Shown here one piece after another: positions 27,473-34,238 of a stretch of DNA of 64,000 nt. The stretch is from Promethearchaeota archaeon (GTDB taxonomy: Archaea > Asgardarchaeota > Lokiarchaeia > Sigyniarchaeales > SOKP01). Under the pieces are notes generated by a model. It ran no database searches and was not told the DNA's origin. It worked only from the letters and a program-made list of their open reading frames with translations. The stretch is taken from assembly GCA_048941015.1 (NCBI GenBank), contig JBHLNZ010000002.1, positions 32,001 to 96,000 of the forward strand, written 5' to 3'. How positions within the stretch are numbered: position 1 is the first letter of the stretch; the number at the start of each line of letters is the position of its first letter. A program made the translations under genes and the position numbers.

Positions 27473-28054
27473 ATGGGAAGAAGAAAAAGAAAACAGCAGA
27501 CTTATAAACGCGTAAAAAAAGTTCCTAAGATTTTCACTTGCCCAAACTGTGGGGAAAAGTCAGTAAAAGTGGAAAATATAAGGAAATCAGCAATTGCTAC
27601 TGTTAAATGTGGGCATTGCGGTTTAACTAAAGATGTATTGGTTAACTCTATTTCAGAACCAGTGGATGCTTTCGGTGATTTTATTGATATCTATTATGCT
27701 GATCAAGAAATTCAGAGACTAGAAAGACGTATTGCTAAATTAAAAAAGGATAACCAATGGGGGGAGCTTGCTCTTTCCTATTCAATTTTAGCAGATTTAT
27801 GTAAAGCAAAAGCTGCTGAGTTATTAGAAGATTCTGAAAATGTTGATGAAGATGAAGTATTAAGATGGAGATCAAAAGCTGAACAGTATAAGAAGCTAGA
27901 AAAGGAAGCATTACTACAACTAGAAACTCTTGAATTAGAAAAAGGTATTAAAACTGATGAAGAGTCATTATTTTCTGAACATGATGAAAGTGATATAAAA
28001 AAAGAACGAAAAATAAATGATATCTTTGATGATCCAGGATTTTTAGAATGGTAA
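27473..28054 (+). CDS. elf1: Transcription elongation factor Elf1 with long C-terminal extension
   Basis: MGRRKRK...FTCPNC...CGHC...EPVDAFGDFID is the Elf1 signature; about 115 extra helical/acidic residues follow. Confidence 0.85.
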   Translation: MGRRKRKQQTYKRVKKVPKIFTCPNCGEKSVKVENIRKSAIATVKCGHCGLTKDVLVNSISEPVDAFGDFIDIYYADQEIQRLERRIAKLKKDNQWGELALSYSILADLCKAKAAELLEDSENVDEDEVLRWRSKAEQYKKLEKEALLQLETLELEKGIKTDEESLFSEHDESDIKKERKINDIFDDPGFLEW

Positions 28055-29941: not shown

Positions 29942-30403
29942 TTATCCTTGTTGCTTTCTTCTACTAAATAATTCCTTTAATTCCCCCATTATTGCACCTC
30001 TTAATGTTAAAGGGGTAGCAGGCCGAGCAGGACCAGGTCCTCCCGGAGGGCCGCCAGGTGGAGGTGGAGGACCGCCAGGTGGACCACCAGGTGGTGGCAG
30101 AGGGCCGCCAGGTGGACCACTAGATGGAGGAGGAGCGCTAACAGGTGCAGATGGAGTGGATACCATAGGGGTAGCTCCAGCACCTCTTGTCTTTAAAGCT
30201 GCCACGTCATTATTCATAGTATTGATTCTAGATTCCAGATTGGAAATTTTTTGATTCAAAGTTGCTAAGGATTGATCGACCAAATCAGGAATCCTTAAAA
30301 TCATCATCATCATTTTTTCGACAATGTCTCCAAACGCATTTAATTTTTCTTCAATTGGGGCTCTTCGTGTCTCTTGCATAAAATTTGCGAATTCTTCTGC
30401 CAT
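29942..30403 (-). CDS. Coiled-coil + polyproline + C-terminal amphipathic/basic helix protein (WAVE/WASH/VASP-like architecture)
   Basis: LATLNQKISNLESRI coil; (G)GPPGGP-rich tract; GAIMGELKELFSRRK terminus; SD-like GAGAGGA upstream. Confidence 0.75.
   Translation of the reverse strand: MAEEFANFMQETRRAPIEEKLNAFGDIVEKMMMMILRIPDLVDQSLATLNQKISNLESRINTMNNDVAALKTRGAGATPMVSTPSAPVSAPPPSSGPPGGPLPPPGGPPGGPPPPPGGPPGGPGPARPATPLTLRGAIMGELKELFSRRKQQG
30029..30134 (-). repeat. GC-rich imperfect repeat encoding GPPGGP/PPPPP units
   Basis: Recurrent ccgccaggtgga/ccaccaggtgg units within the 153-aa CDS. Confidence 0.7.
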
Positions 30404-30548: not shown

Positions 30549-31181
30549 TTAACTTGATTTGTTAACTGAATTTTTTAAAATTATCCATAAATTATCAAGT
30601 TCATCTCTTACTTCTATAAATTGGTGGATCTTTTTAAGAAGAACATCTCTCGCCCGATCAAAATCTCTTTGAAAATCGTTTAATTCGGCTTCTAAAAGCT
30701 TCATTTTATCGCCTTCCATTAAGTCATTTTTTTTCTTTTCAACTGTTAGAGCTTTTTTAATAACAGCAGCTCTTTTGTTTGCAACTTCAATTAAAGCATC
30801 GGCTAATTCTTCTTTCTTTTGAATGAAATATTCCTTATTTACAATTAAATTTTTGATAGCATCAATATAGCCATTATTAACTTTAATATATTCTTCATTT
30901 TTTCGAATGATATCATGAAATAGATTTACTTCTTCATCTTTTACATTAGCTCTTTTCTCTCTTACTAAAGTTTGCATTTGTTTTAAAACATCACGAAAAG
31001 ATCTATTAAGCATATCTCGTTCGACATTAGCTTTAGTTAAATCATCAGCATACTTTTTTTGAGAACTAATTAGAGCGCTTTGGGCTTTTGCCAATTTTTT
31101 AATTTCTTTAACTAGATCTTTTTCCATACTGGCTAATTCCAGTTCATCTTCATGGGTGATTATAGGACTCATTTTAGACAT
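30549..31181 (-). CDS. All-helical 210-aa protein, BAR-domain-like
   Basis: Three long amphipathic helices; the C-terminal KRAAVIKK...EKKKNDL..DKMKLLEAELNDFQRDFDRAR pattern resembles SNX/Vps5 BAR helices 2-3. Confidence 0.5.
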   Translation of the reverse strand: MSKMSPIITHEDELELASMEKDLVKEIKKLAKAQSALISSQKKYADDLTKANVERDMLNRSFRDVLKQMQTLVREKRANVKDEEVNLFHDIIRKNEEYIKVNNGYIDAIKNLIVNKEYFIQKKEELADALIEVANKRAAVIKKALTVEKKKNDLMEGDKMKLLEAELNDFQRDFDRARDVLLKKIHQFIEVRDELDNLWIILKNSVNKSS

Positions 31182-32319: not shown

Positions 32320-33393
32320 TTAATTTTTATATCGTAAAATAGCAACAAGAGATCCTAAGTCTTTAATTTGTTTCCCCGTTGGATGATCACTACTGAGAAT
32401 ATGAATTTTACCTCCCTGATTTTCAACATCAGTCAGAATCTTCTCAATTTTGAGTTTTTGATCTTTGGTTGCCCCTCTAATTAAAATATCGACACAAAAT
32501 AATTCCTTAATTGCTCCCTTTTGGGCAGCTTTAGATACTTCATTGGAACCAATAGCAATCATATCAGGATCAGTCCCTAATAACATAAGAATTTCTTCAA
32601 TTTTTTCAGACTCTTGTAAAATTCTTATATTCTTTTTTATTGAGATTAAATCTTTTGATTTTAGAGTTTCTAAAATTCCACTTTCGGTCCCTGAACTTGC
32701 ATGAATACTCTTTATTATTGAGAGATATTCTGGATTGGATTTTTCCTTAATGTATTTGATAAAAAGATCACGTGTATTGCCAGGTCCACATATTACTATT
32801 AAATTTATTTGAATATCATTTGATTTTTCATCAATAATTTTCTTTATAATAGAAAAAAATTCTTCTAAAGCCTTTTTACGATGTGATTGTTCATATCTTT
32901 TTCCAGGAATCGTTTTTTTTACTGTAGCTATCTTATTATGACTGAAATTCGTTATTAACTCTATAGTAGATAAACCTGTTTCAATGGCAATCATAAGAAT
33001 TATAAAATTACTCTCAAATTTAGAGGATTCTTTTAAACGTTTTAATTCACTTCTAAGCCATTCTTCCTTAATAATTGTTAATGTTTGTCCAATTTCTATA
33101 TTAAAAGTATGATAAGTTCCGAAGCTAACAAAATCTTCTGGACCTTCTAAAATTGTTCCTTTAACTCTTAACCTATTTGAAAATTCATGAAACGATACTG
33201 CCTCTACTTTCAATTTTAGTGTCATGGGTTTTCTTTCTCCTTTTGATCCTTCTTTTAAGACAACTCTCCTATGGGTTCGAGCTATAACTTTATCATTTTC
33301 TGAAATTAAGTTGTAAAGCGTCCAAAGATCGTTCAGACTCTCCACTTTAACAGTGATCTCTTGAGTTTTTTTGTTAATTTCCAGAATTTTCAA
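32320..33393 (-). CDS. pelA: Pelota/Dom34 ribosome rescue factor
   Basis: ESLNDLWTLYNLI, FHEFSNRLRVKG, YHT, IPGKR, AILRY. Confidence 0.93.
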   Translation of the reverse strand: MKILEINKKTQEITVKVESLNDLWTLYNLISENDKVIARTHRRVVLKEGSKGERKPMTLKLKVEAVSFHEFSNRLRVKGTILEGPEDFVSFGTYHTFNIEIGQTLTIIKEEWLRSELKRLKESSKFESNFIILMIAIETGLSTIELITNFSHNKIATVKKTIPGKRYEQSHRKKALEEFFSIIKKIIDEKSNDIQINLIVICGPGNTRDLFIKYIKEKSNPEYLSIIKSIHASSGTESGILETLKSKDLISIKKNIRILQESEKIEEILMLLGTDPDMIAIGSNEVSKAAQKGAIKELFCVDILIRGATKDQKLKIEKILTDVENQGGKIHILSSDHPTGKQIKDLGSLVAILRYKN

Positions 33394-33527
33394 ATTTTAT
33401 ACCAATCTTAATAGATGATTTGCGATAATTAAAAGTAGTGATGTATATTTCAAAAGGTTAATTTTGTCTAAAATAAGATAATTTGAAGATAATAAAAAAA
33501 TAAATAAAAAAGCTGTTAACAATTAAA

Positions 33528-33680
33528 TTATTCATTTGCTCCAAGAGCTTGCTTTACTTTTTCCAACTCTTCCATACGTTTCTTTTTCTCTTCTTCGCGG
33601 CGTTTTAATTCCTCCTCATCTACTTTTTGTAGACTGACTCCTTTCTTAATCTCTTCCTGCAATTCTTTATCTATAGGCAT
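33528..33680 (-). CDS. 50-aa WH2-motif microprotein (below the ORF-track cutoff)
   Basis: Manual translation MPIDKELQEEIKKGVSLQKVDEEELKRREEEKKKRMEELEKVKQALGANE*; upstream AAGGTGTTGAGGA SD-like sequence; higher GC than the flanks. Confidence 0.75.
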   Translation of the reverse strand: MPIDKELQEEIKKGVSLQKVDEEELKRREEEKKKRMEELEKVKQALGANE

Positions 33681-33782
33681 TCCTCAACACCTTTTTTTAA
33701 TAAAATTTGAGAATCTGTTAATATATTTTTATACCAATATTAAAAAAATCTTTATTTTTAAGTTTAAGTTTATAGAAAAACT

Positions 33783-34238
33783 CTAAAATTTTAATTCCAT
33801 CAAATAAGCGCTTTCTTTTTGACGATAATACTGTTCAATTTTACCTATTATACGGAAATTGAATTTCTTATATAAATCTATTGCACTTACATTTGTAGTT
33901 TTAACATTTAAAATAATCCTTTTAACTCCTTTTATTTTTTTAATCCGTTCTAGCGTTTTGTTTAAAAGAAGTGAACCATATCCTAGTTTTTGAAATTTCT
34001 TTTGAATAACAAAATTAATTATATTTACTCTGTCTTCATCATCTTTTATAGCAATGACGAAACCAATGATCTTTTTACTTAAGTTATTGTCTTCGATTTT
34101 TAAAAATAAAGTATTTTGTAAGATTAGTTTTTTTATTGTTTCTCTTGAAAATGCATCTTCTCTAAACATTTTTTTTTCTATTTTGATAAGTTGTTCTAAA
34201 TCATTCAATTCAACACGTTCAATCATCATTAGAATCAA
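33783..34238 (-). CDS. rimI: RimI/Ard1-like GNAT N-acetyltransferase
   Basis: FQKLGYGSLLL, LNVKTTNVSAIDLYKKFNF, YY...AYLM. Confidence 0.8.
   Translation of the reverse strand: MILMMIERVELNDLEQLIKIEKKMFREDAFSRETIKKLILQNTLFLKIEDNNLSKKIIGFVIAIKDDEDRVNIINFVIQKKFQKLGYGSLLLNKTLERIKKIKGVKRIILNVKTTNVSAIDLYKKFNFRIIGKIEQYYRQKESAYLMELKF

Follow-up and report, generated by a model that had tools for sequence, protein, structure and literature searches.

Does the short open reading frame between a Pelota gene and a predicted acetyltransferase gene in this archaeon encode a protein, and if so, could that protein hold actin in the way of the WH2 and thymosin peptides of eukaryotes? The question arises from a stretch of 64,000 nt (hereafter the window), for which the first-pass annotation had proposed an unannotated 50-aa microprotein that binds or sequesters G-actin on its own. 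The ORF runs from ATG to TAA and its translation is MPIDKELQEEIKKGVSLQKVDEEELKRREEEKKKRMEELEKVKQALGANE; the peptide quoted in the first-pass annotation corresponds to residues 4-31 of these 50 aa. The microprotein is however not new to the databases, as the exact 50-aa sequence is already present in public protein sets without a name, and orthologs have been deposited as 'hypothetical protein'.

The features discussed in this study are collected in Table 1. The Shine-Dalgarno-like sequence claimed earlier for this ORF is present as GGTG, and a GAGGA directly abuts the ATG (33681-33685). Further upstream, the TATA-box-like TATAAAAA may be a candidate archaeal promoter that would give the microprotein a separate transcript, and a T-rich tract resembling archaeal terminators follows the stop codon; a scan of the locus for bacterial-type hairpin terminators found none. 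It should be noted that the genome is AT-rich, hence the SD-like, TATA-like and T-tract signals are weak evidence.

Table 1. Positions of the microprotein gene, its flanking signals and neighbours, and of related genes elsewhere; positions without a contig name are those of the window.
Feature	Position	Strand	Basis or remark
Microprotein CDS, 50 aa	33528..33680 (stop codon included)	(-)	ATG to TAA; ORF and translation
SD-like GGTG	33688..33691	(-)	7 nt 5' of ATG; putative, read from sequence
TATA-box-like TATAAAAA	33726..33733	(-)	~46-53 nt 5' of ATG; read from sequence
T-rich tract, archaeal terminator-like	33491..33511	(-)	3' of stop codon; read from sequence
RimI-like GNAT N-terminal acetyltransferase, upstream	33783..34238	(-)	Pfam Acetyltransf_1; TIGR01575 rimI 82.4 bits
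Pelota, mRNA surveillance factor, downstream	32320..33393	(-)	eRF1_1/2/3; TIGR00111 pelota 242 bits
210-aa all-helical protein	30549-31181	(-)	no significant Pfam match
153-aa polyproline protein	29942-30403	(-)	no Pfam family
Elf1-like zinc-ribbon transcription elongation factor	27473-28054	(+)	PF05129, 69.6 bits
RHH + one unit (..HEKGAFLKKPSEQELKEREKLLQKRKRELEKEL), 127 aa	G000:C48:20620-21003 (L024:1121-1504)	(+)	outside window
Three extended profilins, 202-422 aa	G000:C101:6393-6998, C67:7104-8369, C58:114315-114992 (L093-L095)
Ten-repeat gene	L085:864-2327 = G051:C1	(-)	L. ossiferum, GNAMCCOK_04085

Conservation was assessed at several depths. A word-seeded search returned 254 proteins with lengths of 27-88 aa; of these, the best 120 were 48-51 aa long and showed 73-100% identity. 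An intact ortholog frame of 48-58 aa was found in all of the sampled relatives (41/41). The broad profile A6 detected an ortholog in 142/153 sampled genomes of the GTDB order (123/134, 14/14, 1/1 and 4/4 in its families) and in 0/246 Asgard genomes outside it, namely 0/7 from other families of the class and 0/239 from the rest of the phylum. The conservation in Asgard genomes that was suggested as a check on the microprotein is thus found within one order, and not in the other Asgard genomes sampled. Some database orthologs carry the NCBI labels Thor, Heimdall, Hod and Hermod; an Asgard-wide range, as these would suggest, is ruled out by the 0/246, and the labels are probably loose MAG names.

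In the intergeneric comparison the synonymous sites were saturated (pS 0.7-0.96) at a pN of 0.12-0.2, and the median dN/dS was about 0.12 over the 186 pairs with defined dS. Identity of the microprotein was 75-96%, as against 61-82% for the adjoining Pelota. The L. ossiferum ortholog (WP_371806818.1, genome G051) has a 69-aa gene call with a monoisotopic mass of 8.239 kDa, which along with the expected gene index matches GNAMCCOK_02436 (8.24 kDa). This protein was detected by mass spectrometry in 16/16 proteomes, with 5 peptides and 43.5% coverage, hence the family is translated. We conclude that the microprotein is a real gene, far beyond a chance ORF, and that it is under strong purifying selection; as a conserved, constrained and, in L. 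ossiferum, expressed stand-alone protein it agrees with what had been proposed.

In the AF2 model (24-sequence alignment, mean pLDDT 85) the microprotein is predicted to form an amphipathic helix at residues 5-13, an extended stretch at 14-21 (GVSLQKVD) and a charged helix at 22-48; a Foldseek search of the PDB with this 50-aa model gave no meaningful match. All invariant residues belong to the second helix (K32, K34, R35, E38, L39, K41 and K43), and I11, G14, L17, K19, V20 and R28-E31 are nearly invariant. Family-wide, the conserved N-terminal positions are L7, I11, G14, L17, K19 and V20, with L17 conserved to at least 90% in both alignments and G14, K19 and V20 doing so in the A1 alignment of close relatives only. 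The consensus of 46 diverse members reads ELKxEIxxGxxLxKVDxxELKxREEEKKKRxEELxKxKxAL, and the module can be written as h..EI..G..L.KV[DS]..EL..RE.EKKKR.EEL.K.K over some 45 residues, a pattern which the window protein fits. Its scores of 98 bits against A1 and 78 bits against A6 make it a core member of the family. Many members have the exact sequence L[KM]xxIxxGxxLKKV, while the orthologs of family f2 have an altered N-terminal helix and Gly.

The positions that define WH2 are LLxxIxxGxxLKKV, and the conserved positions in the front half of the microprotein coincide with them. G14-V-S-L17-Q-K19-V20 follows the LKKV/T-type motif after a helix and a Gly, the first basic residue being Gln here. 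The window protein thus has LQKV instead of LKKV, along with LQEEI instead of LLxxI (second Leu to Gln); the predicted helix 5-13 keeps L7 and I11, and the full LLxxI or LMxxI is found in the tandem paralogs described below.

Scanning with the Pfam WH2 model had been named as a check on the first-pass annotation, and hmmscan of the microprotein gave no WH2 row (PF02205) at E<=10. The Thymosin model (PF01290, 24.8 bits) likewise left the microprotein unmatched at E<=10 in the four genomes scanned (G000, G051, G038 and G032). A six-frame WH2 scan of the source genome gave a single match, elsewhere, of 12 bits, and the repeat paralogs scored 12.8-13.6 bits, a value similar to the noise in the control genomes and below the cut-off of 23.1.

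Profiles of the family were also searched against the PDB. With A1 the triple-WH2 chain of N-WASP (3m3n_W) ranked first at E 0.004. The independent profile A5, made from the front 28 residues of the tandem paralogs, placed N-WASP twice and Spire twice within the top five of 177,635 sequences, and A6, built on the 46 diverse members, again ranked N-WASP first, so that the N-WASP WH2 came first in the PDB for three of the four family profiles. For the fourth, A4, which holds the front halves of the microproteins themselves, the first rank went to designed TIM barrels containing four copies of ILQEALKKG, and no WH2 appeared. It should be noted that each WH2 stretch scores 4-10 bits and is non-significant per domain, the E-values being significant through summed repeats. 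Against 1.84 billion representative proteins A1 matched 71 clusters, including P0189 at E 3.9e-4, a secreted 6xWH2 protein to which the Pfam WH2 model gives 80.8 bits over 3 stretches. The histidine kinase P0176, in which EEKQKRADEL is repeated ten times, was set aside as a low-complexity match and no relative. The nearest entry in the ESM Atlas was an unnamed cluster (0.91), and ranks 2 and 3 carry Thymosin PF01290 (0.87 and 0.86), which we take as a lead only.

In our reading of these searches, the motif likeness to WH2 is real and specific, and stronger in the paralogs than in the window protein. It is reproducible but weak, and too short to prove common descent. The proposed WH2 match stands as regards L7, I11, G14, L17, K19 and V20, which occupy WH2 positions, and the helix-extended-helix layout of the AF2 model, and it stays below significance per domain. 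The charged helix had been counted into that match as well, and here the proposal is not supported, as the C-terminal helix is the best-conserved part of the microprotein and is absent from WH2.

The free peptide is not the only carrier of the module. Searching for longer proteins among the homologues gave no fused forms; these surfaced in the HMMER library and genome searches. In family f2, hmmsearch with A1 detected tandem proteins of about 480-500 aa with some ten units each (P0121, P0184, L014, L015, L016 and L085). AF2 predicts such a ten-repeat (10x) protein as helices of about 37 residues joined by low-confidence loops of 8-10 residues at G..LxKVD; the model lacks a compact fold (pTM 0.18). 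A folded helical solenoid was considered for the 10x protein and rejected on this pTM and the loop pLDDT of <50, the alignment holding n=9 sequences. In four other proteins (P0143, P0149, P0188 and L080) a profilin is followed by 1-4 units and then by a conserved C-terminal domain. Residues 18-124 of P0188 match the Loki profilin 5zza_P (E 9.6e-10) and 7pbh_A, an entry deposited as 'Profilin' (E 5e-8), and the domain is a genuine Asgard profilin.

The module is further fused in RHH, Ras-like GTPase, LRR and RING proteins. The RHH-unit proteins are 118-127 aa long, and P0177, P0183 and P0187 have the order LRR, module, RHH. In family f1, L081, L082 and L083 (genomes G226, G211 and G044) are 317-357 aa long and consist of a Ras/Roc-like GTPase domain, the module and RHH, and a second module follows the RHH at least in L082 and L083. 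The source genome carries the unit only in the free peptide and in one RHH fusion on contig C48, whose RHH domain is a ribbon-helix-helix of the DNA-binding type. P0175 and a 118-aa protein of G012 are homologs of this fusion, and there is no toxin-like gene next to it. The module was also looked for in the three extended profilins of the source genome and is absent from them. Two of these share a conserved C-terminal tail (..GFLQWIRNPEGLSSYISYYLQQN..), and the third runs on into a region that, judged by eye, is methyltransferase-like.

One of the 10x proteins can be followed into published interaction data. Supplementary Table 2 of the L. ossiferum motility study (preprint 10.1101/2025.11.30.690169; Nature version PMC13716822), of which the top-ranked rows and selected entries are used here, lists the proteins recovered with Lokiactin by co-immunoprecipitation (co-IP). 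The 488-aa ten-repeat paralog of L. ossiferum has a monoisotopic mass of 56.414 kDa and corresponds to GNAMCCOK_04085, listed at 56.41 kDa; the gene lies 51 genes and 57 kb from 2DGel1 (GNAMCCOK_04136), which fits the gene index, and the masses were controlled with actin, for which translation from the second Met yields the listed 42.75 kDa. In the rows used, GNAMCCOK_04085 was recovered with 44 peptides, 70.5% coverage and 366 spectra, at a log2 ratio of 4.53 (adjusted p 0.0021) compared with 4.44 for actin itself (10.1101/2025.11.30.690169). Among the top-ranked rows its spectra exceed those of all L. ossiferum proteins but actin. Other unnamed proteins among these top matches are GNAMCCOK_00333, 02751 and 04250. 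In the preprint passages used, and by term search of PMC13716822, we found no mention of GNAMCCOK_04085.

As described in the passages of the study drawn on here, the co-IP used mild formaldehyde cross-linking (PMC13716822), hence it shows proximity and not necessarily contact. The microprotein ortholog GNAMCCOK_02436 has an entry in the same table with a weak enrichment (log2 0.57, adjusted p 0.105), and the entries of the two profilins are at log2 1.07 and 0.31 (10.1101/2025.11.30.690169). As the profilins are known monomer binders and were themselves recovered weakly, the weak recovery of the ortholog in these entries argues only weakly against actin binding.

Taken together, we suggest with a probability of about 0.45 that the family represents an order-specific helical module of some 45 residues in Loki-type Asgard archaea, whose front half would act like WH2 or a beta-thymosin and bind Lokiactin, most likely the monomer. 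The microprotein is a plausible actin-binding module and a candidate archaeal actin regulator. In the mechanism that we propose, G14 would terminate the N-terminal helix, and V15-S-L17-Q-K19-V20 would run extended across the actin surface with L17 and V20 in hydrophobic contacts. K19 would point toward an acidic patch, E29-D30 of the Lokiactin of the source genome, which we take to correspond to D24-D25 of eukaryotic actin. Helix 22-48 (REEEKKKR.EEL.K.K) might then add a second contact or project as a single helix. A single module could serve as a monomer buffer, or as a competitor of profilin and gelsolin for the same cleft, and modules in series, as in the 10x proteins or in profilins with 1-4 modules, could arrange monomers in a row or decorate filaments. 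The site on actin that WH2-like linkers occupy has been conserved in Loki actins, and Asgard gelsolins already make use of it (PMC9433394).

A wider proposal, which we regard as doubtful, is that the Lokiarchaeales have a WH2-type module class of their own, comprising a free monomer buffer, a ten-unit candidate for a nucleator or filament organiser, a profilin extension and an RHH/Ras-linked coupling. Through the RHH and Ras-like fusions, gene regulation or signalling could in that case be made to depend on the amount of free actin, in a manner similar to the RPEL motifs of MRTF. To our knowledge, neither a formin nor a complete Arp2/3 complex has been reported for Lokiarchaeales.

Some of the same observations could be read without actin. 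The module might be a general helical interaction unit, with the free 50-mer as a microprotein regulator that pairs with or competes against the larger module-bearing proteins (RHH, Ras-like GTPase-RHH, LRR and RING proteins and extended profilins), or binding some other conserved partner. Many of its architectures have no obvious link to actin, including the RHH-module protein of the source genome, and a hydrophobic stripe on the helix (M36, L39, V42 and L46) is kept in all contexts; however, the helix carries many charges but few hydrophobic residues and would make a poor coiled coil, and AF2 predicts no packing between modules. The WH2 similarity is sub-threshold, profile A4 gave only chance matches, and the enrichment of the ortholog with actin is non-significant in the co-IP entries used. 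Against this, the profilin fusions and the recovery of the 10x paralog in those entries tie the module to actin, and the WH2-specific matches would have to be coincidence. We consider this reading unlikely, yet the main rival to the one that we prefer.

Alternatively the module may bind actin in another mode than WH2, with the charged helix REEEKKKR.EEL.K.K placed along filaments or on another surface of actin. On this view the 10x proteins would act as filament side-binders or rulers in the manner of nebulin or tropomyosin, each subunit taking up one module, and a module on its own would be a small peptide that binds or stabilises filaments. It is in line with such a role that the C-terminal helix is the best conserved part in every context, that the predicted 10x shape of long helices and flexible loops suits lying along a polymer, and that, in the rows used, cross-linking followed by co-IP of Lokiactin strongly enriched the 10x protein. 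But it leaves aside that the front half is conserved at exactly the WH2 positions and draws WH2 matches, and no similarity to nebulin or tropomyosin appeared in any search; we find this mode rather improbable.

The genes around the microprotein offer another line of evidence. On the same strand the order is nucleotidyltransferase, radical SAM, RimI-like GNAT, microprotein, Pelota and second radical SAM, the GNAT scoring just below the TIGR01575 rimI cut-off of 86.4 bits. Throughout family f1 the run radical SAM-GNAT-microprotein-Pelota-radical SAM is intact, and part of f2 retains GNAT-microprotein-Pelota, though Pelota identity drops to about 41%. In L. ossiferum the GNAT still adjoins the microprotein and Pelota does not, and in G038 neither does. 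The conserved neighbours are GNAT and Pelota, not actin genes, and the gene order, the sole argument for a connection with translation, may be an inherited one. Most orthologs of the microprotein start with MAP-, MTP- or MSP-, which after removal of Met would be typical substrates of N-terminal acetylation, and we mention this as a speculation; thymosin beta-4 is N-acetylated.

Three further genes of the window may be described here. The 153-aa protein combines a coiled coil at its N-terminus with a long tract rich in Pro and Gly, PPGGPLPPPGGPPGGPPPPPGGPPGGPGP, and a short helix at the C-terminus, RGAIMGELKELFSRRK; it is conserved in 39/41 genomes of the order, and its gene lies about 3 kb from the microprotein in all family f1 genomes compared and is unlinked in f2. 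Polyproline beside a short helix resembles the regions by which VASP, WASP and formins recruit profilin. The gene of the 210-aa all-helical protein is located just upstream of it. The Elf1-like factor, a eukaryote-type signature protein, has a long charged C-terminal extension.

From this gene order one could speculate that the microprotein is linked to translation or the ribosome, through Pelota (ribosome rescue) and the RimI-like acetyltransferase. A weak match to archaeal EF-1beta (1gh8_A) recurs in the searches as well, though at a non-significant E of 0.14-0.67. The synteny that would carry this link, present in f1, part of f2 and, for the GNAT, L. ossiferum, is broken in L. ossiferum at Pelota and in G038; the family is limited to one order, unlike the universal translation factors; Pfam and NCBIfam gave no match to a ribosomal or translation family, and the paralogs point to actin. 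We hold a translation role to be very unlikely. Hardly credible is a precursor of a radical-SAM-modified RiPP, or no gene at all: two radical SAM genes do flank GNAT-microprotein-Pelota in family f1, but they are missing in f2 and the SPASM maturase matches are far below cut-off, the peptide has no Cys and no leader/core layout and is conserved over its whole length under strong purifying selection, and a standard database search covered 43.5% of the ortholog, as expected of an unmodified protein. We reject both the RiPP precursor and the chance ORF.

Returning to the actin-binding module that we prefer, its closest comparison is WH2 itself (PF02205; N-WASP, WAVE, WIP, MIM, Spire and Cordon-bleu). 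WH2 binds actin in the cleft that lies between subdomains 1 and 3. The module, with a helix predicted to be amphipathic and of about three turns, a Gly and L-x-K-V three residues on, has a similar layout, and both occur singly and in tandem arrays. WH2 spans about 17-27 aa and is followed by variable, mostly disordered sequence, whereas in the module a near-invariant charged helix of 27 residues comes right after LxKV; unlike WH2, the module is found in archaea of one order and scores below the Pfam threshold. The tandem-WH2 proteins of bacteria and eukaryotes (Spire, Cobl, VopL/VopF and TARP, and here P0189) share head-to-tail repeats with the 10x proteins and with the profilins with 4 modules, but they have short disordered linkers where the 10x paralogs have a period of about 45 residues with a long helix between the motifs.

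The beta-thymosins (PF01290; thymosin beta-4, ciboulot and actobindin) are free peptides of about 40-50 aa with a helix, an LKK-type linker and a C-terminal helix, and the microprotein resembles them in size and in its predicted helix-extended-helix layout. Thymosin beta-4 contains EIEKFDKSKLKKT, which the EIE..DKS.M.KV of the f2 orthologs resembles. The beta-thymosins have LKKTET and a linker of about 10 residues, whereas the microprotein is without both, and its C-terminal helix begins straight after LxKV and is much longer and more charged.

In Asgard archaea, the two-domain gelsolins have WH2-like linkers of the LKKT type (LVDV, LRRV and LKHV), and the Asp25 region of actin is conserved and used (PMC9433394). 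These are four-residue linkers inside the gelsolin fold, whereas the module is a free helix-LxKV-helix with no sequence relation to them. As WH2-like elements of Asgard archaea we found only these four-residue gelsolin linkers in the literature, and therefore consider the module family to be undescribed. A WH2-like motif has been reported in trypanosomatid profilin, where it is inserted within the profilin fold (PMC10907219); P0143, P0149, P0188 and L080 likewise pair a profilin with a WH2-like element, but here 1-4 modules stand after the profilin domain. In the passages of the motility study used here, only profilins and gelsolins are established as actin regulators of Asgard archaea (PMC13716822).

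How Lokiactin is nucleated and how a pool of its monomers is held bear on the origin of the eukaryotic cytoskeleton. Asgard actin is about 60% identical to eukaryotic actin. If the module does bind actin, it would represent a third class of archaeal actin-binding proteins along with a candidate nucleator; if it does not, it would be a new order-specific helical module with another partner. Should the Lokiarchaeales have a WH2-type class of their own, the WH2 grip on actin would either predate the eukaryotes or have arisen independently.
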